From Chloroflexota bacterium (GTDB lineage Bacteria > Chloroflexota > Anaerolineae > UBA7937 > B3-Chlor), in NCBI GenBank assembly GCA_030603665.1, contig JAUVXJ010000006.1, positions 54,781-118,780 of the forward strand: DNA of 64,000 bases. Reading direction: 5' to 3'. Within the stretch, counting starts at the first letter, position 1. Each line of letters opens with the position of its first letter. Below are positions 7,941 to 26,597 of the stretch, piece after piece. The position numbers were made by a program, and so were the translations under genes. A model generated the notes under the pieces. It saw only the letters and a program-made list of their open reading frames with translations. It did no database searches and had not been told where the DNA came from.

Positions 7941-7970
7941 CGACCAAGCTCACCTGCCGCTTTGTTAGGC
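7941..7970 (-). repeat. Internally deleted attC remnant marking the distal end of the array
   Basis: Minus strand GCCTAAC-AAA-GCGGCAGGTGAGCTTGGTCG; the right arm matches the sites at 9021 and 16652. Confidence 0.7.
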
Positions 7971-8945
7971 TTTGTTATTATGTTCCAAAGTTATTACTAC
8001 ATTTCCCTTCTTGTGCCCTCTTTCAACATAGCTATGAGCCTCGGCAGTTTGTTCTAACGGATAGCGTCTATCTATGACCGATTTCATCTTCCCCGCCTCA
8101 ATAAGCTCTTTGAGGAAAACTACATCTTCGGTACTATTCTCTGCTATCGCGAATATCGCTTTCTTGCTGCTTGTCATCGAAGTCCATAGCCCTCGAACAA
8201 TCTGTGGCAGCCCAGGGCTAGCTAAAAGATAGCGTCCATTTTGCTTTAGCGATCTTATACTACCTGAAAACGAACTCTTGCCTACAGCGTCAAAAACAAT
8301 ATCATAGGTCTCACCGCCTTTGGTAAAATCCTCTTTAGTGTAATCAATTACCTTATCGGCTCCCAGAGATTTCACCAATTCCAAATTCGTGGTACTGCAT
8401 ACCCCGGTAACTTCTGCCCCAAAGTACTTGGCAAGCTGTACCGCAGCAGTACCTACACTTCCAGAAGCTCCATAGATAAGAACTTCTTGTCCGCTCTGGA
8501 TGTTACCCTTGTCTCTAAGGAAAAACAATGCGGATAATGCCCCAAAAGGAACAGCGGCGGCTTCCTCATAGGTCATATTGGCCGGTTTTATTGCCACCGT
8601 CCCTTCTTCAGGCAGACATTTGTACTCGGCATGAGTACCGATGTACTCGCCAACACCGGTAGATCCGAAAACTTGGTCACCTTTCCTAAATACCTTTACA
8701 TCTTTGCCTACTGCTTCAATCTCCCCGGCTAGGTCAGACCCTAGTATAGTATTCTTTGGCCTTGGGAAACCCATCATGATTCTTCCCCAAAATGGGTCAC
8801 CCTTTCGAGATCTCCAGTCCCCTGATGATACTGTTGTCGCATATACCTTTACCAGTATTTCATTGTCCTTGGGAGTAGGTCTTGCTACCTCTTTGAGCTG
8901 AAGAACATCCGGTGGTCCGTATCTTGTGTATACAATCGCTTTCAT
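7965..8945 (-). CDS. Zn-independent MDR family NAD(P)H oxidoreductase, copy 1
   Basis: MKAIV..YGPPDVL start, GASGSVG nucleotide-binding motif, C-terminal [17 protein letters not shown]; no structural-zinc 4-Cys cluster. Confidence 0.9.
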
Positions 8946-9020
8946 GAGTCTCCTCCTTATCTACTTTGATTTGGCCATTTTCAATGTAGTTCACTACCAT
9001 ACATCCTGCAAGCTAGCAAT
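8946..9020 (-). repeat. Conserved ~75-bp MDR-cassette leader (other copies: 12799-12874, 16595-16651, 20080-20155, 21294-21368, 30342-30416)
   Basis: Shared core like GATCCGGTCATTTTGCGTGTAGTTCACCA (+ strand), lying between the GTTRRRY-type box and the MDR start codon. Confidence 0.8.
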
Positions 9021-9091
9021 ACCCAACGACCAAGCCCACCTGCCGCTATTCCGCTGCACTTCATAGCGCCAACTGTAACGCTTTGTTAGGT
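9021..9091 (-). repeat. attC-like site (hybrid arms)
   Basis: Minus strand ACCTAAC AAAGCGTTACAGTTGG...CGCTATGAAGTGCAGCGGAATAGCG...GCTTGGTC GTTGGGT. Confidence 0.8.
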
Positions 9092-9155
9092 CCTGCTATT
9101 ATGCTCCACAGTTATGCCTACATTCCCCTCTTTATGGCCTTCTTCGACATACCTC
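9086..9155 (-). pseudogene. 3' remnant of an MDR gene
   Basis: Encodes YVEEGHKEGNVGITVEHNSRT*, the MDR C-terminus, ending in the attC box. Confidence 0.75.
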
Positions 9156-9205
9156 AAGACTCATTCTACTTCCTCCTTTTTCCTTTCAGTCCTGCTTGCC
9201 GAACA

Positions 9206-9889
9206 CTAATCTAGATGACTGCCGTCGCAAAAAGGTCTATTAGAGCTCTTCCCACATCCGCAGAGGGTTACACGATTGCGAACTTCATATGTTGTACCAT
9301 CTGCTGATTCGATAGGAATGCCGCCCCGGACCCAGATAGGGCCCGTCTTCCCTGACTGAGTGTCCCAAACCAGACCGATAGACGGTTCGAAGACAGGCTC
9401 GATAGCTGTGCCCCTTTCATCCCAGACTACCAGCCTTCCGGAAGGGCAATCACAGGCTTCCTCGATAGCTATTTCTCTGGCATCGAGATTATGGGATTCT
9501 TCGGTGAGTTGCCATATTCCCCCGGCGCGGTCGCAGAAACGGGCGGTGGCACAGAAATCCGGTGCGTCGGTGAGTATGAGGCCTGGACCGGTTATTTCGT
9601 CGGCTTGCTCTAGATAGGGAGTGCGGGCAGCTTCTTCTGTACCGTCGAACTTGATTCTAACGTGAGTACCATCGCAAAATGGCCGGTTACGGGAGCGACC
9701 GCACCGACAGAGAGCATAGTTCTCCAGCGTCGGATATTCTTTGCCTTCTTTCCAGCCATGACTCTGCCCATCGGCATCAACCCGGATGATCTGCTCCGAA
9801 AGTGGAATCCCTCCCGTTACGAGGTAAGGGCCGTTCTTGGATACCTTGATTCTGTATTTGGCTACTTCTTGAGGATTGATTTCTGACAT
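9206..9889 (-). CDS. CDGSH iron-sulfur domain protein (two CDGSH motifs)
   Basis: ALCRCGRSRNRPFCDGTH and TLCGCGKSSNRPFCDGSH plus a central CATARFC...CPSG domain; start placed at ATG 9889. Confidence 0.88.
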   Translation of the reverse strand: MSEINPQEVAKYRIKVSKNGPYLVTGGIPLSEQIIRVDADGQSHGWKEGKEYPTLENYALCRCGRSRNRPFCDGTHVRIKFDGTEEAARTPYLEQADEITGPGLILTDAPDFCATARFCDRAGGIWQLTEESHNLDAREIAIEEACDCPSGRLVVWDERGTAIEPVFEPSIGLVWDTQSGKTGPIWVRGGIPIESADGTTYEVRNRVTLCGCGKSSNRPFCDGSHLD

Positions 9890-9899
9890 TCCCGTGTAT

Positions 9900-10172
9900 C
9901 TACACCATGGCAATCTTGGTCTTATTGTCTTCGAATTCAACTTCAAAGACCGTCTCGTCTTTTGCTCTACCTCCAAGAAGACCTATTCTGGGGCCAGCGA
10001 TGCATTTGCCGGTTGGTACATTGAATTTGGCGCCGTGGTTGGGGCAAGTAATCACCTTCTTGTGTCCCTTTTCAACATACCTGTGAGCCTCGGCCATCTG
10101 TTCCAATGGATGGCGTCGATCTATGACCGCCTTTGGCTTTCCCGCCTCAATAAGCTCTTTGATGTGCTCCAT
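9900..10172 (-). pseudogene. Chimeric ORF: MDR C-terminus fused in frame to a Rieske ferredoxin C-terminal half
   Basis: [20 protein letters not shown] joined to [22 protein letters not shown] (second Rieske box CxxH only). Confidence 0.7.
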
Positions 10173-10193
10173 TTAACCAGTTTATGCCCGTCT

Positions 10194-10886
10194 TTACGAC
10201 TCGGAAACGACTGCAGATGAATTGAATCCTTTAACTATAAGCCATACCGCAAATGCCATTTCTTGCACGGCTATTGGAAGGAATAGAATGTCTAGATTGA
10301 TGCCGATAAACTGCAACAAGTAGGTTGCGAACGACAATGCGGCTCCAATAAGACCCCAACCTGATAACCATCGAGGAATGAGTCTTGTTCTATACAGTAT
10401 GTAGTTTAGCATCAGAGCAGACAGGGACCAAACGAGTCCAGGCCCAATCATAAAGGCCCATTCACGTGCTGCTAGTAACAAGGTGCCTAAGGTTTGAAAA
10501 TAGGAAGCATCCGGAGCTCCTGCTTTCACAAACTCCTGACTTAATGTCAACAGTGTTAGTAGGATGATACTGCCAACAATAGTGCTAAGACCCTCAATGA
10601 ACCTGAGACTGAAGAACCCAAGAGCTAAGGCTTCATTATGCCTTTTCAAGATTGGGAACAGCATAATTGGAATGCCAATAACTGCAAGGGCCCAAATTAA
10701 CTCGATGAGCATTCCTGTCAACACTTGGTTTTCATTTGCAGAAACACTGACAAGATAATCCGGGATAGGTTCCCCTATGATTCCTCCTCCCAAGAATCCC
10801 AAAAAAGGGGCAGTCATTATGGGCGCTGCCGTCGCAACTATGAATAATACTCCCACAATTCTTGCGGTCTTCTTGTCTGAATTCAT
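10194..10886 (-). CDS. DUF4386-like membrane protein
   Basis: MNSDKKTARIVGVLFI start, RLIPRWLSGWGLIG and E...AVWLIVKGF end, multi-TM. Confidence 0.8.
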   Translation of the reverse strand: MNSDKKTARIVGVLFIVATAAPIMTAPFLGFLGGGIIGEPIPDYLVSVSANENQVLTGMLIELIWALAVIGIPIMLFPILKRHNEALALGFFSLRFIEGLSTIVGSIILLTLLTLSQEFVKAGAPDASYFQTLGTLLLAAREWAFMIGPGLVWSLSALMLNYILYRTRLIPRWLSGWGLIGAALSFATYLLQFIGINLDILFLPIAVQEMAFAVWLIVKGFNSSAVVSES

Positions 10887-10919
10887 TTCTTCTTCCCTTT
10901 GTTTCTGCTGTTTGGATTG

Positions 10920-10943
10920 TCCTGTGCAGTTACCTTGTTAGGT
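10920..10943 (-). repeat. attC left-half remnant
   Basis: ACCTAAC AAGGTAACTGCAC on the minus strand, overlapping the stop codon of the MDR remnant. Confidence 0.5.
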
Positions 10944-11249
10944 TCTGTTATTATGCTCCACAGTTATTACCACATTTCCCTTCTTGTGCCCCTTATCAAC
11001 ATAGCTATGAGCCTCGGCAATCTGTTCGAGCGGATAGCGTCTATCTATGACCGATCTTATCTTTCCCGCCTCAATAAGCTCTTTGAGGGAGATTAGATCT
11101 TCAGGACTTTCGGTTGACAGCGCACATATTGCTTTCTTGCCTCCTATTATTGAAGTCCTTAGCATTCGAACAAGCTGTCTCATCCCAAAGCCGGCGGGGG
11201 CAGAGATGAGGGTCAGTTTGCGATGCGATCCGTTCGCCGAGCATGTCAC
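10938..11249 (-). pseudogene. Chimeric remnant: MalT/LuxR-type P-loop fragment fused to the C-terminal ~80 aa of an MDR
   Basis: [13 protein letters not shown] followed by [31 protein letters not shown]; preceded by a GTTGAGT box at 11248-11254. Confidence 0.7.
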
Positions 11250-11316
11250 TCAACGGCCCAATGGTCGCTTCCTCCAGAGCGAGGCTACACTGCCGCGTGC
11301 AGTCCGTGGCCGTCAA

Positions 11317-11643
11317 TCACGGCCGGCTCTTGAAGGCTTCCATAAGTGCGGGATAGAAGCCGCTCAGCGCAGCCACAAGCACGGCTAGTTTCACCGCAGC
11401 GAGCCATGTCAGGTTTGCGCTAATCAGACCCTGAGCGACCGCTCCGGGGAACAGGTCGGGAACGACCCACGCCCACACGAACTTGAACACGACCACCGAA
11501 ATGACAAAGGTCACGGCGACGGCGATGAGGATGGCGATCCCTATTGGCACCCCTTCAGTCACCCGTCTTTCTACTTCTTCAGCCACCCGCTTTTCTACTT
11601 CTTCAGCCATCCGCTTCTCTGCTTCGTCTCTTGACTCCTCCAT
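11317..11643 (-). CDS. Small membrane protein with N-terminal coiled-coil (108 aa), copy 1
   Basis: AAGGAGG RBS; near-identical to 21435-21761; EKRxAEEV repeats and two TM segments. Confidence 0.8.
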   Translation of the reverse strand: MEESRDEAEKRMAEEVEKRVAEEVERRVTEGVPIGIAILIAVAVTFVISVVVFKFVWAWVVPDLFPGAVAQGLISANLTWLAAVKLAVLVAALSGFYPALMEAFKSRP

Positions 11644-11811
11644 TGTAGTATCCTCCTTCATTTGATCCATAATATGCTCTAGTTGTACTCCTTCTAGGCG
11701 GCAACTTACAATACACAAGCGCATCCTTGATTGCCTGCGGCATCCGTCGCAGCCTCTACCCAGGCCGCCCCCTCCTGCTCACAGCCCCCAGCCGCCATCC
11801 GCGTCGCTTTG

Positions 11812-12798
11812 TTAGGTTTTGTTGTTATGCTCCACAGTTATGACTACATTTCCCTTCTTGTGCCCTTTGTCGACATACCTGTGAGCCTCGGGGATTTGGT
11901 CCAACGGATAGCGTCTATCTATGACCGACTTCATCTTCCCCGCCTCAATAAGCTCTTTGAGGAAAACCAAATCTTCCGTCCTAGAGGACGACGTCCCAGC
12001 TATTACTTTCTTGCCGCTTGTCATTGAAGTCCATAGCTTCTGAAGAAGTGGCAGCCCAGGGCCAGCTACAACATAGATTCCTTCTTTCTTTAGCGATCCT
12101 ATACAACCTGAGAGCGAACCCTTGCCCACCACGTCAAGAATGACATCATGGGTCTCACCGCTCTTGGTGAAATCTTCTTGAGTGTAGTCAATGACCTGGT
12201 CTGCACCAATCGAGCGCAGCATGTCCAATTTCGCCGTGCTGTCCACGCCAGTCACTTCAGCCCCAAAGTACTTGCCAAGCTGTATCGCCATAGTACCTAT
12301 ACTTCCGCCCGCACCATTAATCAGAAGCCTTTGTCCGCTCTGGATATCTCCTCTTCTAAGAAAGAACAATGCTTCAAGCCCCCCAACAGGAACGGCGGCT
12401 TCTTCTTCATAGGTCATATTGGCCGGCTTTGTTGCCAGCGCCCCTTCCTCAGGCAGGCATTTGTACTCGGCATAAGAACCAAAACTCATCCCGGTAGGTC
12501 CAAAAACTCGGTCACCTTTCCTAAATAGTTTTACGTCTTTGCCTACTGCTTCAATTCCTCCGGCTAACTCCTGCCCTAGTATAGTTATTCTCTTGGGTCT
12601 TCTGAGACCATTGTATATCCGCATGGGGAGCGATAAGAAGAGAGGGGATTTGAGACCTCGCATCTCACAGTCCCCTGCTGTTACTGTTGTCGCATATATC
12701 CTTATCAGTACTTCATTGTCCTTGGGAGTAGGTTTTTCTACCTCTTCGAGCTGAAGACCATCCGGCGGTCCGTATTCTCTCCATACAATTGCTTTCAT
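11812..12798 (-). CDS. MDR family oxidoreductase, copy 2
   Basis: Same motifs (GAGGSIG); the stop codon forms ACCTAAC at 11811-11817. Confidence 0.9.
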
Positions 12799-12874
12799 AG
12801 GTATTCCTCGACAGTTGCCTTGATCCGGTCATTTTGCGTGTAGTTCACCACAATCTATTCTATTGGTCTGCAAA

Positions 12875-12981
12875 GCCTAACGGTCGTGGCATAAGCGGCG
12901 CCCCACACATCTACATTAACCTCAGCTTCTCTCGGAGCGCATGCTATGCTCCTCCGCGTCCGCTTGATGCCATTGTTAGAC
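12875..12981 (-). repeat. Intact attC site (107 bp)
   Basis: Minus strand GTCTAAC AA TGGCATCAAGCGGACGCG ... GCGCCGCTTATGCCACGACC GTTAGGC; paired arms with the typical single unpaired base (GCATCAAGC vs GCTTATGC), which orients the site with the genes. Confidence 0.9.
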
Positions 12982-13044
12982 GGCTCATTGACCGATGATC
13001 TCAGGTTGCTCCAATACTCCCTAAGCTCAAAAGGTTCCTAAGCT

Positions 13045-13740
13045 CTAACTTACCGTATTGTTAGCTAGCGCCGAGGGCGCCTGGCAGCCAACAATCGCCG
13101 GGGCCTCGTGGATGAGCTCGTCATTCTCGAGAGCCTCCACCATGAACAGGGCAAAGTCCACGCGGCGCGTGATGTTGCTCTCCAGGATGGGGTCGCCCAC
13201 GTGCCTGCTCCACACCGGTAGGCCCTGGCTCTCACCCTCTTCGAGGTCGCTCCCACGCACGACCGTCCACAGGGTGTCGCTGGCAAACACCCGCCGGCAC
13301 GCTTCCACCTGATCGTCGATGTCCACGGCGCGAGCTAGCCGCCCGAGCCAGCCGAAGGCTTTCACGACCGCTCTGGAGGTCCACGAGTAGACGTCCTGGC
13401 CGTCCATCGTAATATGCCAGCCGCAAGAGAATATGAGGCGCGCGTCCGGGCGCGCGTGGTCGAGTACCGCCTGGGCCGTTCCCGACGAGTACTGGTGAAC
13501 GCCCCAAGGTACCAGCACGGTGAGCACCCCGTCACACCCGGCGACCGCCTTCTTGATGGCCTCGCGGTCGTTCGTCGCTCCGGGAATGACGGTGATGCGC
13601 CCCTTGAACGCGTCGAGTTTGCCTACGCTGCGCTCCCGACAAACGCCAACCACCTCGTAGCCCCGATCCAGCGCGTGCTGCACCATGTACTGCCCGAGCT
13701 TCCCCGATGCCCCCACGATACAGACCTTCTTCATATTCAT
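13045..13740 (-). CDS. NAD(P)H-binding oxidoreductase (atypical SDR / flavin reductase-like)
   Basis: KKVCIVGASGKLG Rossmann motif, WTVVRG and TRRVDFALFM; higher GC than its neighbours. Confidence 0.8.
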   Translation of the reverse strand: MNMKKVCIVGASGKLGQYMVQHALDRGYEVVGVCRERSVGKLDAFKGRITVIPGATNDREAIKKAVAGCDGVLTVLVPWGVHQYSSGTAQAVLDHARPDARLIFSCGWHITMDGQDVYSWTSRAVVKAFGWLGRLARAVDIDDQVEACRRVFASDTLWTVVRGSDLEEGESQGLPVWSRHVGDPILESNITRRVDFALFMVEALENDELIHEAPAIVGCQAPSALANNTVS

Positions 13741-13907
13741 CCTCTCGCGTCCTCTAGCTATGCGGCCATGGTTGTGGCGCGTGATCCGAGGGCTCCAATG
13801 GCGGGCGCCAAGATCCACCCTAGTCTTACAGCTCTTGTGAAGACAGTACTTGAAGAAGACATCTTACCTGGTCGCTATCTTAACCAACTATCCCGATTCG
13901 CAGTGGC

Positions 13908-14038
13908 AGATAACGGCCAAGCTCACCGGGCACGCGGCACAACGGGTTCAACGATTGAACAGCCAGAAGACCGAGGTGAAGGGGAATACGTCGAAAAGCC
14001 GAAAGACGAGCGTGCTCCGGTGCAACGCCTTGCTATGC
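13908..14038 (-). repeat. attC site with variant AGC inverse core
   Basis: Minus strand GCATAGC AAGGCGTTGCACCGGAGCACGC ... GCGTGCCCGGTGAGCTTGGCC GTTATCT. Confidence 0.82.
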
Positions 14039-14080
14039 GTCCGTTGCGGGGGATTCGACGTGAGTCCACTGTATCCCCAC

Positions 14081-14452
14081 TTAAACGTGCTGATCGACAA
14101 GAATTGGGTTCCCATCGGGGTCGACAGCGACAAAGCTCGCCGGTCCTGTGGTTGTCTCGTCGGCTTCGGTCACTAGCTGCACACCTTGCGCTTTCAACTG
14201 GCGCTGTAGATCACGAACGTCGGTGAATGTATCGAGCTTGCTTGCGTTGCTGTCCCAGCCCGGATTGAAGGTTAACATGTTCTTTTCGAACATGTCCTGA
14301 AAAAGACCGATTGCGTGATCGCCGTTCTTTAGAATTAGCCAGTTCTGTGAGGCATCTCCGCCGAAGACGCTGAAGCCAAACTTCTCGTAGAAAGCCCTCG
14401 AAGCTTCGATGTCTTTGACAGCCAAGCTGATCGAGAATGTACCGAGTTCCAT
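14081..14452 (-). CDS. VOC/glyoxalase family protein (complete single-gene cassette)
   Basis: [19 protein letters not shown] and GPASF...[12 protein letters not shown]; flanked by attC sites on both sides. Confidence 0.88.
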
Positions 14453-14491
14453 GATTCCCTCCCTTGGAAGACAACTCTGCCGGCGTCAGAC

Positions 14492-14584
14492 GCATAGCGG
14501 TCGGCGCTTAACCGGCGGCGTTCCTTGGCAGCTCTATTTCGCATGGTAGAGCTATAGCCGTCCGCGTTGGAGCGCTTGTTAGGC
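14492..14584 (-). repeat. attC site with variant GCT core
   Basis: Minus strand GCCTAAC AAGCGCTCCAACGCGGACGGC ... GCCGCCGGTTAAGCGCCGACC GCTATGC. Confidence 0.82.
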
Positions 14585-14692
14585 TTTGCTTTCATGTGCC
14601 AACGTGATTACTACGTGTCCCTTCTTGTGCCCCTTGTCGGCATACCTGTGAGCCTCGGCAATATGTTCAAAGGGATAGCGTCGATCAGCGAC
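14579..14692 (-). pseudogene. 3' remnant of an MDR gene
   Basis: [37 protein letters not shown], ending in GCCTAAC. Confidence 0.75.
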
Positions 14693-14727
14693 CGTCCGAC
14701 GGTGGCTCGAGCGCTACGGCTCCCTGA

Positions 14728-14913
14728 TTACGAGGTTTCCTTCAGCAGGTCCACCACCAGCCAGCAAGCTGCGCCGACCGCTAGAAAGCAGACCGCCTGG
14801 GGTGTGTCAGAGCTCCTGTACTGCTCGCGCCCCTCCTCCGTGCTCAGATCCGCCCCCGTCAATTCGCGGCACTTGATGGTCTCCATCTCGGCCTCGAAGC
14901 GGCGACGAAACAC
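14728..14913 (-). pseudogene. C-terminal fragment of a C-GCAxxG-C-C family putative redox protein
   Basis: RRFEAEMETIKCRELTGADLSTEEGR...C pattern; the N-terminal half is absent. Confidence 0.55.
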
Positions 14914-14965
14914 ATGTGAGAGAAAGACGAACAGGGCGGAGCCACCAGACGAGAATCCGCGGCCT

Positions 14966-15451
14966 CTACGTAGTTTCCCGCTTGGCTGTAAGGCTTCTTA
15001 TCAGTCTTACGAGCAGAACTAGTGCACTTACCCCATAGATAACCGCCATGAGGATCAAGAAGACGGTTACCACTCTTGGCACAACATCGACCGCAGTAGC
15101 ATTCGGTATTACACTGAAATCAAAGGGGAATATGAATAGTAGCGATCCGACCACAGCGATACCGATGATGATAATTATCAGCTGAGCTGTCGTGCGAAAC
15201 CAGTATCTATCGTAAAAAATCATTACAGTATAAGCTACTATGGCTAGAATTGATGCTGTAATCGGAATAGGAAGCCAAGTGAAATAGTCGTTAGTTAGCA
15301 TCGATAGTCGGGTAACACTTCCATCTGGTATGGTGGTGTACCATGCAAAATACTTATAGAAGACGGTAATAAGGATGAGATTACCCACAGTCACGAGGAT
15401 CATAAAAATGTGGCTGCTAATTTCACTCCTACTCTGGGGTGATGATTCCAT
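14966..15451 (-). CDS. Hypothetical 4-TM membrane protein
   Basis: AAGGAGG RBS, 161 aa, four hydrophobic helices, AT-rich. Confidence 0.65.
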   Translation of the reverse strand: MESSPQSRSEISSHIFMILVTVGNLILITVFYKYFAWYTTIPDGSVTRLSMLTNDYFTWLPIPITASILAIVAYTVMIFYDRYWFRTTAQLIIIIIGIAVVGSLLFIFPFDFSVIPNATAVDVVPRVVTVFLILMAVIYGVSALVLLVRLIRSLTAKRETT

Positions 15452-15679
15452 GCGTTTCCTCCTTGCCTTAAAGGATAAAGATACCGTTCATAGGAATCAG
15501 GATAATGCTAGAGCTCAATAAGGTTGTATTATATCTCAAATTGCCATCTAGGTAAATAGTCATTTCCTGTGAAAACCCCAATAGATTACGAACAATCGAA
15601 ACCACACTTACAGAAAAGCGGCACGCAGTGATTGAATCTCTGGGGCCCCGTCGTGTTTCCGTCAACTCCAAGAAAGGTG

Positions 15680-16591
15680 TCACCCTACCACAGTTATGAC
15701 GACATTTCCCTTCTTGTGTCCTTTGTCGACATACCTGTGAGCCTCGACGATCTGTTCCAACGGATAACGTCTATCTATGACCGCTTCTAGCTTTCCCGCC
15801 TCAACAAGCTCTTTGAGGAAGACCAGATCTTCAGTCTGCTCTTCGAAGCCTGAACCCCATACGGAAAGATAGTCACCTCCTTGTGTTAGCGAGCCTTTAC
15901 TCTGTGAAGACGAAATCTTGTTTACTGCGTCAAGAATAACATCGTAAGTCTCACCGCTTTGGGTAAAATCCTCTTCTGTGTAATCAATTACCTTGTCGGC
16001 TCCCAGAGATTTCACCCACCCTAGATTCGTGGTACTGCATACCCCGGTGACTTCTGCCCCAAAGTACTTGGCAAGCTGTACCGCATAGGTGCCTACACTT
16101 CCAGAAGCCCCATAGATCAGGACTTTCTGTCCGCTCTGGATATTCGCTTTTCTAATGAAAGACAATGCTGTAAGTCCCCCAATAGGAACGGCGGCGGCTT
16201 CCTCATAGGTCATATTGACGGGCCTTATTACCAGCACCCCGTCTTCAGGCAGACATATGTACTCGGCATAAGCACCCCCCCCAGAACCGGTAGGTCCACA
16301 AACTTGGTCACCTTTCTTAAACAGCCTCACATCTTTGCCTACCGCTTCAATCTCCCCGGCCAACTCATGCCCTAGTATTTCTTTTCTTGGTTTTCCAAAA
16401 CCCCATAATAATCGCAGGGGGAGCTGGAACAAGAGAGGGACTTTGAGACTTCGAATTCTCACATCCGCTGCTGCTACAGTTGCCGCATAAATCCTTACAA
16501 GTACTTCATTGTCCTTGGGAGTAGGCTTCTCTACCTCTTTGAGCTGAAGAACCTCCGGTGGTCCGTATTTCGTGCAAACAATCGCCTTCAT
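15680..16591 (-). CDS. MDR family oxidoreductase, copy 3 (short C-terminal variable region)
   Basis: [22 protein letters not shown]; GAGGAG RBS. Confidence 0.9.
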
Positions 16592-16651
16592 CATACTCCT
16601 CAAGAATCGCCTAAGTGTAGCTCATCACAATCTATGCTATGAATCTGCAAG

Positions 16652-16778
16652 ACCAAGCGACCAAGCTCACCTGCCGCTATGAAGCACAGCGGAATAGCGG
16701 TCGGGTGGTCCCTCCTGAGCGAAGTCGAAGGGCAGCGCCTTGACAAAGTACCCCGTGCCGGCATGTCCGCTGTTAGGT
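16652..16778 (-). repeat. attC site interrupted by two small insertions
   Basis: ACCTAAC..[insert]..AAGGCGCTG[CCCTTCGACTTCGCTCAGGAGGGAC]CACCCGACCGCTATTCCGCTGTGCTTCATAGCGGCAGGTGAGCTTGGTC GCTTGGT. Confidence 0.75.
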
Positions 16779-16863
16779 AGGAGAGTCCCCTTGGGGATGC
16801 GCGCGTGTCTGGGCGCGATCACTGGCGGCCGCCGTCCTGCCGACCCGTTTTCGGAGACCCTGA

Positions 16864-17880
16864 CTACGCGCTGGTAACGAGAACCACCTTGCCCGCGTAT
16901 CCGCCGCGCTCGAGTAGTTCGTGAGCACGAGCGGCCTCAGCCAACGGGAAACGCTCCGCCACGACCGGCTTGATACTGCCTGCCGCCAGTAGGTCGAGGA
17001 GTTCCGTCAGCGTTTCGCGGTACCAGGCGTTGTCCTTATCGAGATCCGGGGTCAAAGGCGCCGACTTGCCGTCCGGAATGAGTGCCAGCAGAGTCCGCAT
17101 CAGCAGGGTGAAGGGAATGACGCGCAGCCCCTCCTTCTTCGTGGCGGCCACACCGAACCACACCAACCGCCCGCCTTTGCGCAGGACCTGGTACGAGCGC
17201 CAGAGTTGCCTCGCGCCGCCGATGGGGTCGAACACGGCATCCACCCCGTCGCCGGTAAGACCACGGATCCGCTCGACGAAGTCCTCGGTGCGGTAGTCGA
17301 TCGGCGTGGCTCCGAGTGCGGACACGAGTTCGTGATTGTACTTGGACGCCGTGCCGTACATCTTGAGCTCTGCCAGCTTGCCAAGCCCGAGCAGAGCGGT
17401 CCCTACGCCTCCCGCCGCACCGTGGACGAGGATGCGCTCGCCGCTCCGGTTCTTGGAGGTTCGGTGCATGGCCATGTGGGCGGTGAGGTAGTTCACCACC
17501 ATGCAGACAGCTTCGGCAGGATCCACACCCGAGGGGACGGGCACCAACTCGCTGGCGGGCAGGCAGATGAACTCCGTGTAGCCGCCACCGGCGCCAAGTG
17601 AGAAGGTCGCGCCGGCAACCATCTGCCCCAGCTCGACGGTCGACACCTCCTCGCCCAACTTGTCCACCACGCCAGCGACGTCCTCGCCCAGGGTGAACGG
17701 CACGCTCGGAGTCCCGGGGAGCGAACCTGAACGTCGGAACATGAGATCGTAGCCGGAGATTCCGGCGGCCAGGACCTTCACCCGAACCTCGCCCGCCTGG
17801 GGTTCAGGGAGATCCTCTTCCACCACCTGCAACACGTCCGGCCCCCCATGCTGCGTAACGACGACGCGATGATGTTTCAT
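16864..17880 (-). CDS. MDR family oxidoreductase, second subfamily (MKHHRVVV type), copy 4
   Basis: GGPDVLQVVE, NYLTA, HGAAGGVG, GKVVLV; GC-rich; paralogue of 26598-27644. Confidence 0.9.
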   Translation of the reverse strand: MKHHRVVVTQHGGPDVLQVVEEDLPEPQAGEVRVKVLAAGISGYDLMFRRSGSLPGTPSVPFTLGEDVAGVVDKLGEEVSTVELGQMVAGATFSLGAGGGYTEFICLPASELVPVPSGVDPAEAVCMVVNYLTAHMAMHRTSKNRSGERILVHGAAGGVGTALLGLGKLAELKMYGTASKYNHELVSALGATPIDYRTEDFVERIRGLTGDGVDAVFDPIGGARQLWRSYQVLRKGGRLVWFGVAATKKEGLRVIPFTLLMRTLLALIPDGKSAPLTPDLDKDNAWYRETLTELLDLLAAGSIKPVVAERFPLAEAARAHELLERGGYAGKVVLVTSA

Positions 17881-17978
17881 GCCAGCACCTCCTTGTCTTT
17901 GGCTCTCGGCTTGCCGGTGCCCTGGAGTTCCAGGACACCATCAGGTGACCCGTAGTTGTGATAGACGATTGCTTTCAT
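17877..17978 (-). pseudogene. 33-codon 5' remnant of an MDR gene, translationally coupled to the downstream MDR
   Basis: MKAIVYHNYGSPDGVLELQGTGKPRAKDKEVLA*; its TGA overlaps ATG 17880. Confidence 0.75.
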
Positions 17979-18030
17979 CTGGGCCTTCCTTCTTGTTTGA
18001 ATGATCGCGAGGTTTCGGCGGTACGGATTG

Positions 18031-19029
18031 TCACTTGATAGTATGCTCCACAGTTATGACTACGTGTCCCTTTTTGTGCCCTGTTTCGACATACCTGTGA
18101 GCCTCGGGGACCTGGTCCAGCGGATAGCGTCTATCTATGACCGATTTCATCTCTCCCGCCTCAATAAGCTCCTTGAAGAAGATCAAGTCTTCAGTCTTTG
18201 GTTTTGCTGCCCCGAACATCACCTTCTTGCTGCTTGTCATTGAAGTCCATCGCCCCCGAACGAATTGTGCCGGCGCGGGGTTAGCTATAAGATAGCGTCC
18301 GTTTTGTTTCAGCGATCTTATGCTACCTGAAAACGAACTCTTGCTTACCACGTCAAGAACAAAATCATAGGTCTCACCGCTTTTGGTGAAATCTTCTTGA
18401 GTGTAATCAATGACCTGGTCTGCACTAATGGAGCGCAGCATGTCCAATTTCCCCGTGCTGTCCACGCCAGTCACTTCAGCCCCAAAGTACTTGGCAAGCT
18501 GGACCGCGAAAGTACCTATCGTTCCACCCGCACCATTGATCAGAACCCTTTGTCCGCTCTGGATACTTCCTTGTCTAAGAAAACACAATGCTTCATGTCC
18601 CCCAACAGGAACGGCGGCTGCTTCCTCATAGGTCATATTGGCCGGTTTTATGGCCAGTGCCCCTCCTTCAGGTTCTTCAGGCAGACATATGTACTCAGCA
18701 CAAGCACCCATACCAACAAAACCGGTAGCTGCAAAAACTTGGTCACCTTTGCTAAATCGCTTCACATCTTTGCCTACTGATTCAATTTCCCCGGCCAACT
18801 CCATCCCTAGTACAGTTACTCTCGTTGGTCTCTTGAGACCCACATATGCCCGCATGGGGAGCGCGTACCAGAATGGCAACTTGAGACTTCGTTGTTCACA
18901 GTCCCCGGCTGTTACTGTTGTCGCACGTATTCTGATCAGTACTTCGTTGTCCTTGGGAGTAGGTTTTTCCACCTCTCTGAGCTGAAGAACATCCGGTGGT
19001 CCGTATGCTGTCCAGACAATCGCTTTCAC
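18031..19029 (-). CDS. MDR family oxidoreductase, copy 5
   Basis: GTG start with GGAGGAG RBS; same motif set. Confidence 0.9.
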
Positions 19030-19033
19030 GCAT

Positions 19034-19083
19034 CTCCTCCAAGATTGCGCGGCCTATTGGTTGGGTCTGGCGCTTTGCCAGGT
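19034..19083 (-). repeat. Fused attC-half/RBS spacer (other copies 22808-22858, 26263-26313)
   Basis: Minus strand ACCT(GG/GA/AG)C..GC..(C/T)CCAACC.ATA.G..GCGCAATCT(T/C)GGAGGA, directly joining consecutive MDR genes. Confidence 0.7.
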
Positions 19084-20079
19084 CTTGCTGTTATGTTCCA
19101 CAGTGATGACTACATTTCCCTTCTTGCCCCCCCTTTCGACATACCTGTGAGCCTCGGCCATTTGCTCCAAGGGATAGCTTCTATCTATGACCGTTCTTAT
19201 CTTTCCCGCCTCGATAAGCTCTTTGAGGAAGACCAAATCTTCAGTTCCATAGGTTACATTCCCAACTATGGCTTTCTTGCTACCTCTGCTGGAAGTCCCT
19301 CCCCCTCGAAACATCTGCGACAGCCCAGGGTTAGCTGAAAGATAGCGTCCATTTTCCTTTAGCGCTCCTATACAACCTGAAAACGAGCTCACTCCTACCA
19401 CGTCAAAGATGACATCATAGGCCTCACCGGTCTTGGTGAAATCTTCTTGAGTGTAGTCAATGACCTGGTCTGCACCAATGGAGCGCAGCATGTCCAGTTT
19501 CCCCGTGCTGTCCACGGCAGTCACTTCAGCCCCAAAGTGCTTGGCAAGCTGTATCGCTATAGTACCTATACTTCCACCCGCACCATTAATCAGAAGCCTT
19601 TGTCCGCTCTGGACGTTTCCTTTTCTAAGATGATGCAATGCCTCAAGTCCCCCAAGGGGAACGGCGGCGGCTTCCTCATAGGTCATAATGGCCGGCTTCA
19701 TTGCCAGCAGCCCTTCAATCCCTTCAGGTTCTTCGGCCAGACATATGTACTCAGCATAAGCGCCCATACCAAAACCGGTATGTGCAAAGACTTGGTCACC
19801 TTCTTTGAACAGCTTCACATCTTTGCCTACTGATTCAATCTCCCCGGCCAACTCTTGCCCCAGTATCTTTCTCCTTGGTCCTCTGAGACCAAAGCCCATT
19901 CGCATGAGGAGCTGCAACATGAGAGGCTGCTTGAGACCTCGGAGTTCACAGTCCCCTGCTGTTACTGTTGTCGCATCTATTCTTATCAGTATTTCATTGT
20001 CCTTCGGGATAGGTTCTTCTACCTCTCTCAGTTCAAGAACGTCCGGTGATCCCCATTTGGTGCAGATGATCGCCTTCAT
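19054..20079 (-). CDS. MDR family oxidoreductase, copy 6 (stop lost, reads into attC remnant)
   Basis: Same motifs; ends EHNSKTWQSARPNQ, with TGG where paralogues have the stop codon. Confidence 0.9.
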   Translation of the reverse strand: MKAIICTKWGSPDVLELREVEEPIPKDNEILIRIDATTVTAGDCELRGLKQPLMLQLLMRMGFGLRGPRRKILGQELAGEIESVGKDVKLFKEGDQVFAHTGFGMGAYAEYICLAEEPEGIEGLLAMKPAIMTYEEAAAVPLGGLEALHHLRKGNVQSGQRLLINGAGGSIGTIAIQLAKHFGAEVTAVDSTGKLDMLRSIGADQVIDYTQEDFTKTGEAYDVIFDVVGVSSFSGCIGALKENGRYLSANPGLSQMFRGGGTSSRGSKKAIVGNVTYGTEDLVFLKELIEAGKIRTVIDRSYPLEQMAEAHRYVERGGKKGNVVITVEHNSKTWQSARPNQ

Positions 20080-20155
20080 GGTTTCCTCTCCAAGGTTGCC
20101 TTGATCCGGTCATTTTGCGTGTAGTTCACCATAACCTGGCCTGTAAGTCTGCCAA

Positions 20156-20285
20156 ACCTATCCACTTGGATTCAGTTGCGGCGGAGGTCTGCAAAAAGGC
20201 ATCCCACTAACCAAGACCCGCCGCAACCCAGAAACACTAATGGGAACCACAGCTCCCGGCCGTCAACTGTAACGCTTTGCTAGGT
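20156..20285 (-). repeat. Degenerate attC site
   Basis: ACCTAGC AAAGCGTTACAGTTGACGGC ... CCGCCGCAACTGAATCCAAGTG GATAGGT. Confidence 0.7.
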
Positions 20286-21293
20286 TTGGTTATTATGCTC
20301 CACCGTTATGACTATATGTCCCTTCTTGAGCCCTTCTTCAACATACCGGTGAGCCTCGGCAGTCTGTTCCAACGGAAAGCGTCTATCTATGACCGCTCTT
20401 ATCTTCCCCGCCTCAATCAGCTCTTTGACGGAAATCAAATCCTCAGTACTTCCTGGTGCAATCGCACATATTACTTTCTTGCTGCCTATCATTGAAGTCC
20501 ATAGCATTTGAAAAAGCTGTCTCATCTTAAAGCTGGCCAAGAGATAGCGCCCGTTTTGCGATAGCGATGTCTTGCATCGTGAAAACGAACTCTTGCCTAA
20601 TATGTCAAAAATAAGATCATAGGTCTCACCGCTTTTGGTAAAATCCTCCTTGGTGTAATCAATGACCTTATCAGCCCCCAGAGATTTCACAAATTCCAAT
20701 CTCGGGGTACCGCATACCCCGGTAACTTCTGCGCCAAAGTGCTTGGCAAGCTGTACCGCAGCTGAACCTATCGCTCCAGAAGCGCCATTGATGAGGACTT
20801 TTTGTCCGCTCTGAATATTCCCCTTCTCTCTAAGCAAATTCAACGCAACTATTGACCCCCATAGAACGACGACGGCTTCCTCATGGGTCATATTGGCCGG
20901 CTTTGTGGCCAACACCCCGTCTTCAGGCATACATACATACTCGGCATAAGCACCCATGATCTGACCACGATATCCAAAGACTTGGTCACCTTCTTTGAAT
21001 CGCTTTGCATCCTTGCCGGTTGCTTCAATTTCCCCGGCAAACTCACTCCCTAGTATAGCTATCTTTGGTTTTCTGAAACCAAAGAACATTCCTGTGACGA
21101 GCCAGAAGGGGAAAGGCATGTTGAATTTCCGAGGGGAGACTTCTTTGAAATTCCGAGCTACAATATCCCCGTAACTTACTGTTGCCGCATATACTTTTAT
21201 GAGTACTTCACTGTCCTTGGGAGTAGGTTTTTCTACCTCTTTGAGCTGAAGAACATCCGGTGGTCCGTATTCTGTGTATACAATCGCTTTCAT
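20280..21293 (-). CDS. MDR family oxidoreductase, copy 7
   Basis: Same motifs; longest N-terminal variable loop ([19 protein letters not shown]). Confidence 0.9.
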
Positions 21294-21368
21294 GAGCTTC
21301 CTCCTATACTGTTTTGATCCGGTGATTCTACCTGTAGTTCACCACAATCTAACCAATAGGTTTGCGGA

Positions 21369-21400
21369 ACCCAACGGCCCGCGCACCAGGCGCGCGGCGA
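21369..21400 (-). repeat. attC right-half remnant
   Basis: ...GGTGCGCGGGCC GTTGGGT immediately before the conserved MDR leader. Confidence 0.55.
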
Positions 21401-21434
21401 GGCTACACTGCTGGGTGCAGTCCGTGGCGAACGA

Positions 21435-21761
21435 TCACGGCCGGCTTCTGAAGGCTTCGATCAGTGCGGGATAGAAGCCGCTCAGCGCAGCCACAAGCAC
21501 GGCTAATTTGACCGTGGCGAACCAGGTCAGGTTTGCGCTAACCAGACCCTGAGCGACCGCCCCGGGGAACAGGTCGGGAACGACCCACGCCCATACGAAC
21601 TTGAACACGACCACCGAAATGACAAAGGTCACGGCGACGGCGATGAGGATGGCGATCCCTATTGGCACCCCTTCAGTCACCCGTCTTTCAACTTCTTCAG
21701 CCACCCGCTTTTCTAGTTCTTCAGCCATCCGTTTCTCTGCTTCGTCTTTTGACTCCTCCAT
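21435..21761 (-). CDS. Small membrane protein (108 aa), copy 2
   Basis: Near-identical to 11317-11643, including the RBS and downstream flank. Confidence 0.8.
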   Translation of the reverse strand: MEESKDEAEKRMAEELEKRVAEEVERRVTEGVPIGIAILIAVAVTFVISVVVFKFVWAWVVPDLFPGAVAQGLVSANLTWFATVKLAVLVAALSGFYPALIEAFRSRP

Positions 21762-21778
21762 TGTAGTATCCTCCTTGA

Positions 21779-21811
21779 GGAATAGCGGTAGGGTGTTGCG
21801 CTCTGTTAGGT
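21779..21811 (-). repeat. attC left-half remnant
   Basis: ACCTAAC AGAGCGCAACACCCTACCGCTATTCC, matching the left arm of the 16652 site family. Confidence 0.65.
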
Positions 21812-22804
21812 CTTGCTGTTATGTTCCACAGTGATGACTACATTTCCCTTCTTGCCCCCTTTTTCGACATACCTGTGGGCCTCGGCAGTCTGTTCCAGCG
21901 GATAGCTTCTATCGATGACCGGTTTTATCTTTCCCGCCTCAATAAGCTCTTTGAGGAAAACCAAATCTTCGGTCGTAGGTGACCCTGCCCCGAATATCAC
22001 CTTCTTGCTGCCGGTCATTGAAGTCCATCGCCCTCGAACCATCTGTGACAGCGGAGGGTTAGCTAAGAGATAGCGTCCGTTTTCCTCCAGCGATCTTACA
22101 CTGCCTGAAAACGGACTCTTCCCTACCACGTCAAGAATAGCGTCATAGGTCTCACCGCTCTTGGTGAAATCCTCTTGAGTGTAATCAATGACCTGGTCTG
22201 CACCAATGGAGCGCAACATGTCTAATTTCCCCGCGCTGTCCCCACCGGTCACTTGAGCCCCAAAGTACTTGGCAAGCTGTATCGCCATAGTACCTATACT
22301 TCCACCCGCACCATTAATCAACAGCTTCTGTCCGCTCTGGACATTTCCTTTTCTAAGAAAATGCAATGCTTCAAGTCCCCCGACAGGAACGGCGGCGGCT
22401 TCCTCATAGGTCATATTGGCCGGCTTTATTACCAGCACCCCTTCTCTAGGTTCTTCAGGCAGACATATGTACTCGGCATAAGCACCCAGACCAAAACCGG
22501 GAGTTCCAAAAACTTGGTCACCTTCTTTAAACAGTTTGACATCTCTTCCTACTGCTTCGATTTCCCCGGCTAGCTCCTGCCCTAGTATGGTCATTCTCCT
22601 TGGTTTTCTGAGACCCACATATGCTCGCATGGGGAGCGACAAGAAGAGAGGGAATTTGAGACTTCGCATCTCACAGTCCCCTGCTGTCACTGTTGTCGCA
22701 TATATTCTGATCAGTACTTCATTGTCCTTGGGAGTAGGTTTTTCCACCTCTTTGAGCTGAAGAACATCCGGTGGTCCGTATTCTGTCCATACTATTGCCT
22801 TCAT
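21806..22804 (-). CDS. MDR family oxidoreductase, copy 8
   Basis: Same motifs; GGAGG RBS. Confidence 0.9.
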   Translation of the reverse strand: MKAIVWTEYGPPDVLQLKEVEKPTPKDNEVLIRIYATTVTAGDCEMRSLKFPLFLSLPMRAYVGLRKPRRMTILGQELAGEIEAVGRDVKLFKEGDQVFGTPGFGLGAYAEYICLPEEPREGVLVIKPANMTYEEAAAVPVGGLEALHFLRKGNVQSGQKLLINGAGGSIGTMAIQLAKYFGAQVTGGDSAGKLDMLRSIGADQVIDYTQEDFTKSGETYDAILDVVGKSPFSGSVRSLEENGRYLLANPPLSQMVRGRWTSMTGSKKVIFGAGSPTTEDLVFLKELIEAGKIKPVIDRSYPLEQTAEAHRYVEKGGKKGNVVITVEHNSKT

Positions 22805-22852
22805 CAGTTTCCTCCAAGATTGCGCGGCATATTGGTTGGATGCAGCACTTTG

Positions 22853-23836
22853 TCAGGTCATGTTATGTGCCACAGTGATGACTGCTTTACCTAGGACGTG
22901 TCCTTCTTCAAGGTACCGGAAAGCTTGAGCGGCCTCGCTCAACGGGTAACATCTATCTATGACAGGTACGACCTTGCCGCTTTCGAAGAGCTCTGCCAAA
23001 AGAACCAAGTCTTCTCTATTGTTTGCATCCCAGGCATTGAGACCTATCTTCTTGCTCCCCATCCTGGATATCAGAGTCCCTAGGAATACGACTTGGAGAA
23101 GTGTGGCCAAGGAACCTCCGACCCAGACATAGACTCCCTCGGGACTCAAAGCACGCCGGTAATCGAGAACCGAACGATATGCCACAACATCAAAGATCAG
23201 ATCATAGCGTTGCCCACTCTTGGTGTAGTCCTCTTGGGTGTAATCAAGAACATGGTCAGCACCAATGGAGCGCAGCATGTCCAGTTTCATCGCGCTATCC
23301 ACGCCGGTCACTTCGGCCCCAAAGTACTTGGCCAACTGAACCGCAAACGTTCCCATACCACCGCCCGCACCATTGATCAGGACCTGTTGTCCTCGCTGAA
23401 TCTGTCCTTTGTCGCGAAGACTCTGCAGGGAGATGATTGCCGAGTGAGGATAGGTCGCTGCTTCCTCGAATGTCATACTGGCCGGTTTCAGCGCCAGTGC
23501 ATTCTCAGAAGCACACACATACTCAGCAAAGGTGCCATAACCATACGGATAAGATAAGTCCCCCCATACCTCATCACCTGGCTGAAACCGCTTTACGTTT
23601 CCGCCAACCGCCTCAACCCTCCCGGCCATGTCTGTACCGAGTATCTTGTACCTTGGTCTTATGGGCCCAACGAAGCGCGCGTGCCACTCACCTCTCAGGG
23701 TCTCCAGGTCACCTGCATTGACGGACACCGCATGAACTCTTACCAGTGCTTCATCGTCCTTGGGAGTGGGTCTTTCTACCTCTGTGAGCTGAAGGACATC
23801 CGGTGGTCCGTATTCTGTGCATACGATCGCCTTCAC
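22853..23836 (-). CDS. MDR family oxidoreductase, copy 9
   Basis: GTG start at 23836 (VKAIVCTEYGPP) behind GGAGG; GAGGGMG. Confidence 0.9.
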   Translation of the reverse strand: MKAIVCTEYGPPDVLQLTEVERPTPKDDEALVRVHAVSVNAGDLETLRGEWHARFVGPIRPRYKILGTDMAGRVEAVGGNVKRFQPGDEVWGDLSYPYGYGTFAEYVCASENALALKPASMTFEEAATYPHSAIISLQSLRDKGQIQRGQQVLINGAGGGMGTFAVQLAKYFGAEVTGVDSAMKLDMLRSIGADHVLDYTQEDYTKSGQRYDLIFDVVAYRSVLDYRRALSPEGVYVWVGGSLATLLQVVFLGTLISRMGSKKIGLNAWDANNREDLVLLAELFESGKVVPVIDRCYPLSEAAQAFRYLEEGHVLGKAVITVAHNMT

Positions 23837-24012
23837 GAGTTTCCTCCAAACTTGCTTTGAGGGGAAGCAGGCGAACACCCATCGCTCTTTCATCCTCAGA
23901 ATCCCATAGAGCGGGAGAGGATAAGTCCCCTGCGAATGACGCGGGCGCATCCACTCTTCCTTCCTCCATTGCCTTCAGCGGGCCCGCGTCATTCCCCTAT
24001 CGTCAAGACTCC

Positions 24013-24720
24013 CTACGAGGCCCTCGACAGACTGTAGACCTTCCATCCCAGGACGAAATAGAAGATGAGGCATGCGAAATAGCTGCCCGCGCCGATCATA
24101 GAGGAGGGATCGACCATTTGGAGGACTGCCGCTACGAGACCAACCACCCCGAGCAGCACGCTCACCCCGCCAAAGCCCTTGCCAAAGGCCGGGGCCCCGA
24201 GCATGGCCACTCCGAGGGCAATGAGACCTGTCGGCACGACAAAGAACCCTACGTAGAGCATCGCATCGAATACGCCCAACGTCGCCTGCCACAAGAGGGC
24301 GAGTGTCGCCTGCTCCCCGGGGGTCGCCCCAGGAGCGTGATAGAGGTCGGAGAGCGGAGCGTGAGCGACATGCGGGAGAGTTCCGGCCATGAGCACGGCG
24401 AGACCCAGAATGGCCAGGACGCTCCCGAAGAGGGCGGGCGCGAGGCTCGTCCTCCGGAGAGCCCGATACAAGGCAAGGAAGAGGGTGACCTCCAAGATGA
24501 GAGCCACCAGGTATATGCCATTCTCTACTATGCGGGCCGCTCTGATGTCGGGGAACCTCGTGACAAACCCCGCGAGGTCGACAGGATCCTCCATTCCCAC
24601 GGGACCCGCGAGTATTACGACCCAGGTGAGAATGAGGAGGATGCCACCCAGCATACCGGCCAGACCACCCCATCGCAGAACGCCTTTCTCCTCCTCCATC
24701 TTCTGCAAATCATTCATCAT
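24013..24720 (-). CDS. DUF4386-like multi-TM membrane protein
   Basis: 235 aa, about 6 TM segments, AAGGAG RBS, LRWGGLAG..GG N-terminal pattern. Confidence 0.65.
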   Translation of the reverse strand: MMNDLQKMEEEKGVLRWGGLAGMLGGILLILTWVVILAGPVGMEDPVDLAGFVTRFPDIRAARIVENGIYLVALILEVTLFLALYRALRRTSLAPALFGSVLAILGLAVLMAGTLPHVAHAPLSDLYHAPGATPGEQATLALLWQATLGVFDAMLYVGFFVVPTGLIALGVAMLGAPAFGKGFGGVSVLLGVVGLVAAVLQMVDPSSMIGAGSYFACLIFYFVLGWKVYSLSRAS

Positions 24721-24854
24721 TTATCTCCTTTGTTTTCGACATCTTTGATGAGTTTCATTGAATTGGACTTGACAAGACTGTGGTCGCCATCCTGTTCCTA
24801 AGAGCTGAAATGGGCTAGAAATGCTCTATAGGCAAACCTCCTTCTTAAATATCG

Positions 24855-25142
24855 CTATCGTGCCTCAATTTGCTGTTTGACATCTGACGCATCTGCCTGG
24901 CCGGGTTGAACGCGATTGATCGAAAGCAATGGCATTCCGAAACCACGCACTCTTCTTAGCAATCCATACAACGCGGCCTGATCGACCGCCGGGCCGGTCA
25001 AAAGCGTACCGCCGTCCTCTTCCAGCGTGATGGTCAGGCCCCAAAACCAGTCTGTTCATTGACGACCCAGATGGCCCTTGAGCCTGACTTGATAGATCAT
25101 TGCGGGCCTCGGATCAGTTTCTGGGTTGAGTTTGTTTGACAT
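24855..25142 (-). pseudogene. Small conserved hypothetical protein with an in-frame TGA
   Basis: MSNK..YQVRLKGHLGRQ*TDWFWGLTITLEEDGGTLLTGPAVDQAALYGLLRRVRGFGMPLLSINRV; the stop at 25056-25058 is at a position that I recall as Trp in this family. Confidence 0.75.
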
Positions 25143-25251
25143 TACCCTGTACCTGTTGTGGCCGGTCATAACAGCCTGTAACCTATGCCACTTGCGCGCA
25201 ACCCCGCGACTCTTGCACAAATGGGTGGCGATGTGTCTGCGGTACGGGTTG

Positions 25252-26575: not shown

Positions 26576-26597
26576 TTTTCCTTCCCTTTGACCCTGG

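Follow-up and report, generated by a model that had tools for sequence, protein, structure and literature searches.

The integron gene cassette at 13914-14497 of the window, by which we mean the whole 64,000-nt stretch of DNA analysed here, carries a non-canonical core at both of its ends. The preliminary description had pointed to a change of GTT/AAC to GCT/AGC in the two boxes that bound a VOC gene, and this holds: the middle base of the triplet is altered at each end, the two alterations are complementary, and comparison with two homologous copies of the cassette (L155 and L156) marks them as derived. The GTT/AAC triplet is, to our knowledge, the sole sequence common to all integron recombination sites. 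We think it an even call that the double transition arose by coincidence, at a tolerant triplet position and within an array that lacks an integrase, and coincidence is in our assessment slightly more likely than selection for the switch to GCT/AGC.

Ends of the VOC cassette

On the minus strand GCTATGC occupies 14498-14492, 39 nt upstream of an ORF of 123 aa, and GCATAGC occupies 14038-14032, 42 nt past the stop codon of that ORF. The two are exact reverse complements, as had been claimed, and the pairing extends beyond the boxes to 10 exact bp (14498-14489 with 14041-14032), or to 12 bp if one G-T pair is included. The 7-mer itself is not over-represented in the window (8 occurrences against 7.85 expected, with at least 8 in 60 of 100 shuffles), and its significance thus rests on the position of the boxes. 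As the two inverted 7-bp boxes of an attC site, R' GCTATGC and R'' GCATAGC pair at 7/7 positions, with the triplets AGC and GCT standing where AAC is conserved in R'' and GTT in R'. The features concerned are as follows.

13914..14497, minus strand: VOC cassette, a mobile unit of 584 nt consisting of a leader, one ORF and the attC up to the G of R'
14081..14452, minus strand: VOC gene, 123 aa (glyoxalase / bleomycin-resistance / dioxygenase superfamily; PF00903, E 3e-10)
14492..14498, minus strand: R' box GCTATGC, of which the G belongs to the upstream attC and CTATGC forms the first six bases of the cassette
14492..14584, minus strand: attC A5, on the upstream side of the VOC cassette (score in the covariance model 16.0 bits, E 0.012)
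13908..14038, minus strand: attC A6, of the VOC cassette (covariance model 22.9 bits, E 1e-4)
12875..12981, minus strand: attC A7, canonical, GTCTAAC ... GTTAGGC (74.1 bits; a seed of the model)
7960..30470, minus strand: cassette array without an integrase, CALIN-like, dominated by paralogous genes for zinc-dependent alcohol dehydrogenase (ADH), with many truncated or degenerate attC sites

The unit has the form of one ORF followed by one attC, the ORF being preceded by a ribosome-binding site and beginning 45 nt after the cassette start. The cassettes adjoining it all lie on the minus strand in the same orientation, and A7 closes the cassette of an NmrA-like NAD(P)H-binding protein (13818-13045). 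Among the 27 genomes of the order the VOC gene is present in only one, that of the window, and relatives of its product at 76-89% amino-acid identity are spread over many phyla.

For the calling of attC sites a covariance model was made from seven seeds, six from outside the window together with A7, and neither of the sites that flank the VOC cassette was a seed. Four further sites (G030_a, G030_c, ownC5_a and ownC2), short or deleted and misplaced by MAFFT, were left out of the seeds. The model was run unfiltered over 6000-33000 of the window; attC sites outside the seed set score 28-51 bits with it, and it also yields an apparent false positive of 16.5 bits inside mnmG (6122-6215), so that the A5 call, at its lower score, is weak by itself. 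Twelve attC sites were also aligned by hand: eight that adjoin integrase genes (in G040, G030 and G007), three from contigs C5 and C2 of the same genome as the window, and A7. In these R'' is followed by 14-15 nt and then by a bulged A inside a helix of 6+6 bp, and the distance from the helix to R' is 15-17 nt in 11 of the 12, and 8 nt in the site at C5:32183-32304. From its R'' box GCATAGC, A6 runs through 15 nt, 6 bp, a bulged A (14016), 6 bp and another 15 nt to the hybrid R' box GTTATCT (13914-13908), and thus possesses the L''/L' helix with its extrahelical base; the helix is formed by 14022-14010 with 13935-13924, and 12 of its 12 pairs are Watson-Crick in the window. In A5, R'' is GCCTAAC (14584-14578) and shares bases with the stop codon that ends a C-terminal fragment of ADH, and R' is GCTATGC; the L helix of this site has bulged bases, and it has 16 nt between R'' and the bulged A and 17 nt between helix and R', as compared with 14-15 and 15-17 nt in the other sites. 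Simple scans for R boxes and pairing arms were too permissive, every hairpin qualifying and many hits being false, and were used only for picking seeds; single-sequence DNA folds of eight candidate sites were barely better than those of shuffled sequences (z from +0.05 to -2.0).

Two of the 80 metagenome loci that encode VOC relatives, L155 and L156, carry the cassette itself. The homology of L156 to the window spans 14501-13911 only, at 82% identity, with unrelated sequence upstream, and that of L155 spans 14647-13911, at 88% identity, so that the end of the upstream ADH gene and the A5 attC are common to L155 and the window (A5 is identical at 70/85 positions). Beyond the G of the downstream R' box the window, L155 and L156 are mutually unrelated; in L155 the next unit downstream is an ADH cassette with a leader that is also found in the window. 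There are thus three downstream and two upstream contexts with breaks at the G of R', where a crossover between the G and the TT of that box would place them. The covariance model finds nothing above 6.2 bits in the L155 and L156 copies, whose L helices are decayed, and for this reason their boxes were read from the alignment. In 80 genome loci with VOC relatives nucleotide homology is confined to 14479-14059, that is, to the coding sequence and its ribosome-binding site, and gives no boundary information; of eight other genomes of the genus, four match parts of the region and none of them there has the VOC gene, the arrays being too diverged. Among the contigs listed for four public runs, the best of which hold only 10-15% of the sampled words, there was no excision joint and no contig across 14498 or 13914, a result that carries no information on excision.

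From the placement by the covariance model and the homology breakpoints of L155 and L156, both boxes are true cassette ends, the R' and R'' of an integron gene cassette extending from 14497 to 13914, which supports the proposal that they are partners that pair only in the excised circle. A canonical GTTAAGC nevertheless lies close by, at 14512-14506, and if it were the true R' then the inverted repeat of GCTATGC with GCATAGC would be fortuitous; we consider this very improbable. GTTAAGC does pair with the R'' of A5 in a simple box search (6/7 complementary), and the unremarkable frequency of the GCTATGC 7-mer, like an A5 score no better than that of the mnmG match, would sit well with it. However, only 3 nt separate it from the L helix, and the minimum-free-energy fold includes it in that helix, the covariance model chooses GCTATGC despite the penalty for its C, and the L156 homology begins at 14501, not at 14511, with unrelated sequence upstream; moreover L155 and L156 have GTT exactly where the window has GCT. 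We rejected GTTAAGC as R' on its spacing, the model and the L156 breakpoint.

A derived change at one base pair

The homologous boxes are GTTATAT and GCATAAC in L155 and GTTATGC and GCGTAAC in L156, the middle base of the R' triplet being C in the window (14497) and T in both relatives. Identity to the window in the VOC coding sequence is 349/372 for L155 and 329/372 for L156; the window is therefore nearer to L155, L156 serves as the outgroup, and both changes are polarised to the window lineage. Since L155 and L156 both read GTT/AAC, GCT/AGC is, on the alignment of these copies, a derived double change at a single base pair, from T-A to C-G. The comparison comprises three copies of the cassette in all.

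At paired sites the window lineage has undergone T>C at 14497 (R'), A>G at 14033 (R'') and T>C at 13934 (L helix). Across the 217 non-coding cassette sites that can be aligned there are 15 window-specific changes, of which seven are T>C, six are A>G and two are of other types. The AT>GC bias of the lineage is thus strong over these segments (14498-14453 and 14080-13908), and we note that the substitutions of L155 look biased in the opposite direction.

These observations can be accommodated by two independent transitions, GTT>GCT in R' and AAC>AGC in R'', which would have turned the middle pair from T-A to C-G in place, after the cassette had settled at its present upstream junction. They would have been driven by a strong AT>GC drift acting at the position of the triplet where integron integrases are most tolerant of change, and the complementarity of GCT and AGC would be largely fortuitous. 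Because L155 has the same upstream junction and reads GTT, the changes probably postdate the arrival of the cassette at that junction. While the cassette stays in the array, its hybrid attC sites would contain the mismatches AAC/GCT in A5 and AGC/GTT in A6, and excision would be hindered; an excised circle, by contrast with these, would carry a perfectly paired attC that an ordinary integrase could presumably recombine, going by the data for IntI1, and an integrase of changed specificity would not be needed. In favour of coincidence, both changes belong to the commonest class in this lineage (13/15 are AT>GC transitions). Against it stands the fully paired state of the circle-form attC. Of the 24 pairs counted, 12 each for the L helix and the extended R helix, 23 are Watson-Crick and one is G-T in the window, as compared with 15 and three wobble pairs in L155 and 18 and two wobble pairs in L156.

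The same pairing invites an explanation by selection, in which the cassette stayed competent for recombination and the second change was favoured once the first had occurred, re-insertion being confined to cassettes in which the cleavage triplet of the excised attC is paired. GCT/AGC would then be a working natural core used by an ordinary integron integrase. We regard selected compensation as possible though somewhat doubtful, and we are equally tentative about its corollary, that the cassette has been excised and inserted again while bearing a non-canonical core. All three window-lineage changes at paired sites (14497, 14033 and 13934) keep or restore pairing, the R helix is perfect over 10-12 bp, and a second two-step compensation is seen in the L helix, where the pair 14011/13934 is A-T in L156, G-T in L155 and G-C in the window. 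The hairpins of the window are intact and those of the relatives decayed, and A6 scores 22.9 bits where the L155 and L156 copies give nothing above 6.2 bits; the A5 hairpin folds at -16.5 kcal/mol in the window and at -9.1 kcal/mol in L155, and there is one further two-sided change between the two.

How readily such pairing arises by chance was simulated by placing 15 window-lineage substitutions randomly on the 217 non-coding sites in 200,000 trials. In 11% of trials at least one of the 24 pairs undergoes a two-sided compensated change, and in 4.1% there is one that is accompanied by no mismatch elsewhere; at the GCT/AGC pair specifically the figure is 1.7% (P = 0.017), and at least 23 Watson-Crick pairs are obtained in 2.5% (P = 0.025). 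The last two values count in favour of selection, but they are modest and partly post hoc, and since the pair was chosen after the fact among many cassette junctions, we take the simulation as suggestive, offering hints on complementarity that fall short of decisive. The earlier argument that random decay is unlikely to hit both complementary positions is accordingly overstated, given 13 AT>GC transitions among 15 changes, the frequency of single variants in the array (below) and simulated values that run from 1.7% to 11% with the way the question is put.

The experiments on IntI1 bear on both explanations. In the work of Frumerie et al. (2010, PMC2811028), a compensated GCT mutant of attCaadA7 recombines with wild-type attI1 about 6-fold below the wild type, a wild-type attC with attI1-GCT is unaffected, GCT in both partners brings a drop of about 30-fold, and a non-complementary triplet one of about 370-fold. 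IntI1 thus requires complementarity and tolerates the compensated GCT, as selection would have it, and the view that GTT/AAC is essential for IntI is, on these data, outdated; nor do the two boxes imply an integrase of altered or relaxed specificity, as had been proposed, if IntI1 already accepts such a site. The same numbers also weigh against selection, because each of the two changes adds a mismatch to a flanking attC (A5 and A6), and a mismatched triplet cost IntI1 about 370-fold. More directly, L155 has GTT at the upstream junction that it has in common with the window, and the window copy has needed no circle since its changes; selection for pairing acts only on re-inserted circles, and a copy that stays in place would not experience it. 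For the suggestion that the cassette had been mobile with a GCT core we thus have no evidence from the three copies, L155 reading GTT at the same junction.

Triplet variation in the array and the search for an integrase

The VOC cassette is part of an array in which 13 of 27 scanned ORFs carry the domains ADH_zinc_N_2, ADH_N and ADH_zinc_N. Thirteen full-length zinc-ADH paralogues and several C-terminal fragments lie on the minus strand in this one array (7965-30341), the ADH 3' end is repeated in up to 15 copies, and unrelated small genes lie between them. Several of the intergenic regions contain attC-like sites and many contain only remnants. The ADH stop codons sit within the R'' box, TAA, TAG and TGA corresponding to AAC, AGC and GAC, such that a coding constraint overlaps the constraint on the recombination site.

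Triplets were counted by reading the intergenic sequences by eye together with the covariance-model calls. The 14 R'' triplets are AAC in eight, AGC in four, GAC in one and GGC in one, and the ten R' triplets are GTT in five, GCT in three and GAT in two, with positions 1 and 3 invariant. Restriction of the R' variation to position 2 (5 of the 10 boxes) looks like functional constraint and not free decay, and position 2 is also the one that IntI1 tolerates, which is in favour of selection. On the other side, uncompensated single variants are frequent in the array: A3 has AGC with GAT and A2 has AGC with GTT as in-place mismatches, and single variants outnumber doubles by roughly five to one, as under independence. 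For the class as a whole, 53 distinct attC sites from 37 loci gave an R'' triplet of AAC in 50 and of GAC, CAC and AAT in one each, and an R' triplet of GTT in 47, GTG in two, TTT in two, GAT in one and GCT in one, a census that is skewed toward canonical sites, these having been the basis of the model. The preliminary description had proposed such a count in this genome and its relatives, with frequent changes uncorrelated between cassette ends speaking against its reading; the array variants, frequent and approximately independent, come close to that outcome, and the class census is mostly canonical.

Individual sites of the census deserve mention. At L148 (G076:C17:1369-1496) GCCTCAC is found with GTGAGAG, so that CAC faces GTG and the two are complementary in place, and at L136 (G043:C114:318-437) GCCTAAC is found with GCTTGCC, a GCT that is uncompensated in place. 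The genome of the window has a second integrase-less cluster (G000:C5:29777-32304) with three attC sites of 78.6, 48.0 and 35.2 bits, in which one R' is TTTAGGC and one site has a shortened 3' spacer, as well as a lone attC with AAT and TTT (G000:C13:34084-34173). A further match of 18.1 bits lies on the minus strand of the window outside the array, near a carbon-nitrogen hydrolase gene (34849-34911), and may be an isolated attC or a false hit of the model.

Other peculiarities of the array concern the sites and leaders of neighbouring cassettes. The R' box of A4, GCTTGGT, might be taken for a second independent T>C, since the L155 homologue of the cassette that adjoins A4 begins with GTTAGGT; we did not count it, because this apparent GCT box is the second copy of an 8-mer repeated in tandem (GCTTGGTC twice, at 16666-16651). 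The central stem-loop of A4 (16700-16675) matches that of A9 (9043-9068) in the opposite orientation over 26 nt at 92% identity, and it appears from this alignment that the loop has been inverted between otherwise homologous attC sites. Between R' and many of the ADH cassettes there is a conserved leader of about 70 nt that contains TTGCAGA, TAGATTGTGGTGAACTACA and GACCGGATCAA in this order (approximately 12870-12800, 9015-8946, 30400-30342, 21330-21294 and 20150-20080, and L155:2043-2175), which may serve as a promoter or as a regulatory RNA. A cassette for a small membrane protein occurs twice, at 11279-11578 and 21397-21696, with 93% identity at a distance of 10 kb, and the attC sites of the two copies differ, ACCCAGC with GTTGGGT in one and a degenerate box with GTTGAGT in the other.

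The source assembly consists of 32 contigs and is 91% complete. None of its ten matches to tyrosine recombinases passes the 265-bit cut-off for IntI (TIGR02249), the best scoring 68.9 bits, and contig C8 has no such match; the cognate integrase that the preliminary description expected elsewhere in the genome was thus not found in this assembly, nor does it contain a complete integron with intI and attI beside the array. Because no integron integrase is present in the assembly, and with A5, A6 and A7 lying within 1.7 kb, we class the array as CALIN-like. An integrase may be encoded in the portion of the genome missing from the assembly. Its absence from the assembly is a further point against selection, although IntI genes do exist in the relatives, with matches over the cut-off in 8 of 41, among them an intact gene in the same genus (G007:C210, 476.7 bits).

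The lineage could also have, or have had, an integrase of altered core preference that pushed its cassettes toward GCT/AGC. The array does have GCT in 3 of 10 R' boxes and AGC in 4 of 14 R'' boxes, as compared with 1 of 53 and 0 of 53 in the class, but the class census is skewed toward canonical sites by its model, and the array is mixed, with GTT and AAC still the commonest triplets and GAT present too. The A4 GCT box (16658-16652) lies within an 8-nt tandem duplication and may not reflect a point change, and the A1 GCT box is part of a degenerate site whose 5' half is truncated. Furthermore, the genome assembly has no IntI, the sole IntI of the same genus (G007) is flanked by canonical attC sites in two out of two cases, and IntI1 in the work cited above already tolerates GCT. 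We therefore regard an altered preference as improbable, and continue to favour two in-place transitions.

Relation to known integron systems

The VOC locus provides a natural cassette, with ends fixed by two relatives, in which the base pair that is tolerated in the laboratory has been switched. If the switch was selected, it would be field evidence for the laboratory pairing rule and would indicate that attC cores can drift, the middle triplet position evolving freely in environmental integrons within the constraint of pairing. From it lineage-specific attC dialects might then even arise that keep cassette pools partly separate, as could follow from the drop of about 30-fold that IntI1 shows when both partners are GCT. 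If the switch was instead a coincidence, the locus would illustrate how cassettes become locked into integrase-less arrays, and would advise caution in inferring compensation when two common transitions happen to pair. In both cases such sites will be under-called by detection models that insist on AAC/GTT.

A narrow full-text literature search, with subscription journals outside its coverage, found no printed account of a natural GCT/AGC cassette, and the GTT triplet was termed absolutely conserved in all integrons characterised by 2010 in PMC2811028. The closest counterparts are the GCT mutants of attCaadA7 and attCVCRd in that paper (Frumerie, Ducos-Galand, Gopaul and Mazel 2010, NAR 38:559), which resemble the VOC attC in having T>C at the second position together with its complement. 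These mutants, however, were engineered and assayed with IntI1, whereas the VOC site is natural and is known from the sequence of an uncultured environmental genome.

The array as a whole resembles the CALIN of Cury et al. (2016, NAR 44:4539, PMC4889954), defined there as at least two attC sites within 4 kb with no integrase nearby. As in those elements, attC sites less than 4 kb apart are co-oriented in the absence of an integrase (A5, A6 and A7 are spaced by 0.45-1.1 kb), and the cassettes are of unknown or accessory function, the array sites having been called with our home-made covariance model. Unlike the CALIN described there, the array is made up largely of tandem ADH paralogues with truncated attC remnants.

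Sedentary chromosomal arrays in relatives (G007:C210, G040:C97 and G030:C7) offer a third comparison. Their attC sites have the architecture of those in the window array, with 7-bp R boxes, 14-15 nt to a bulged A, an L helix of 6+6 bp and 15-17 nt to R'; but they adjoin an IntI gene and carry AAC/GTT, whereas the window array is without IntI and is variable at the middle position of the triplet.
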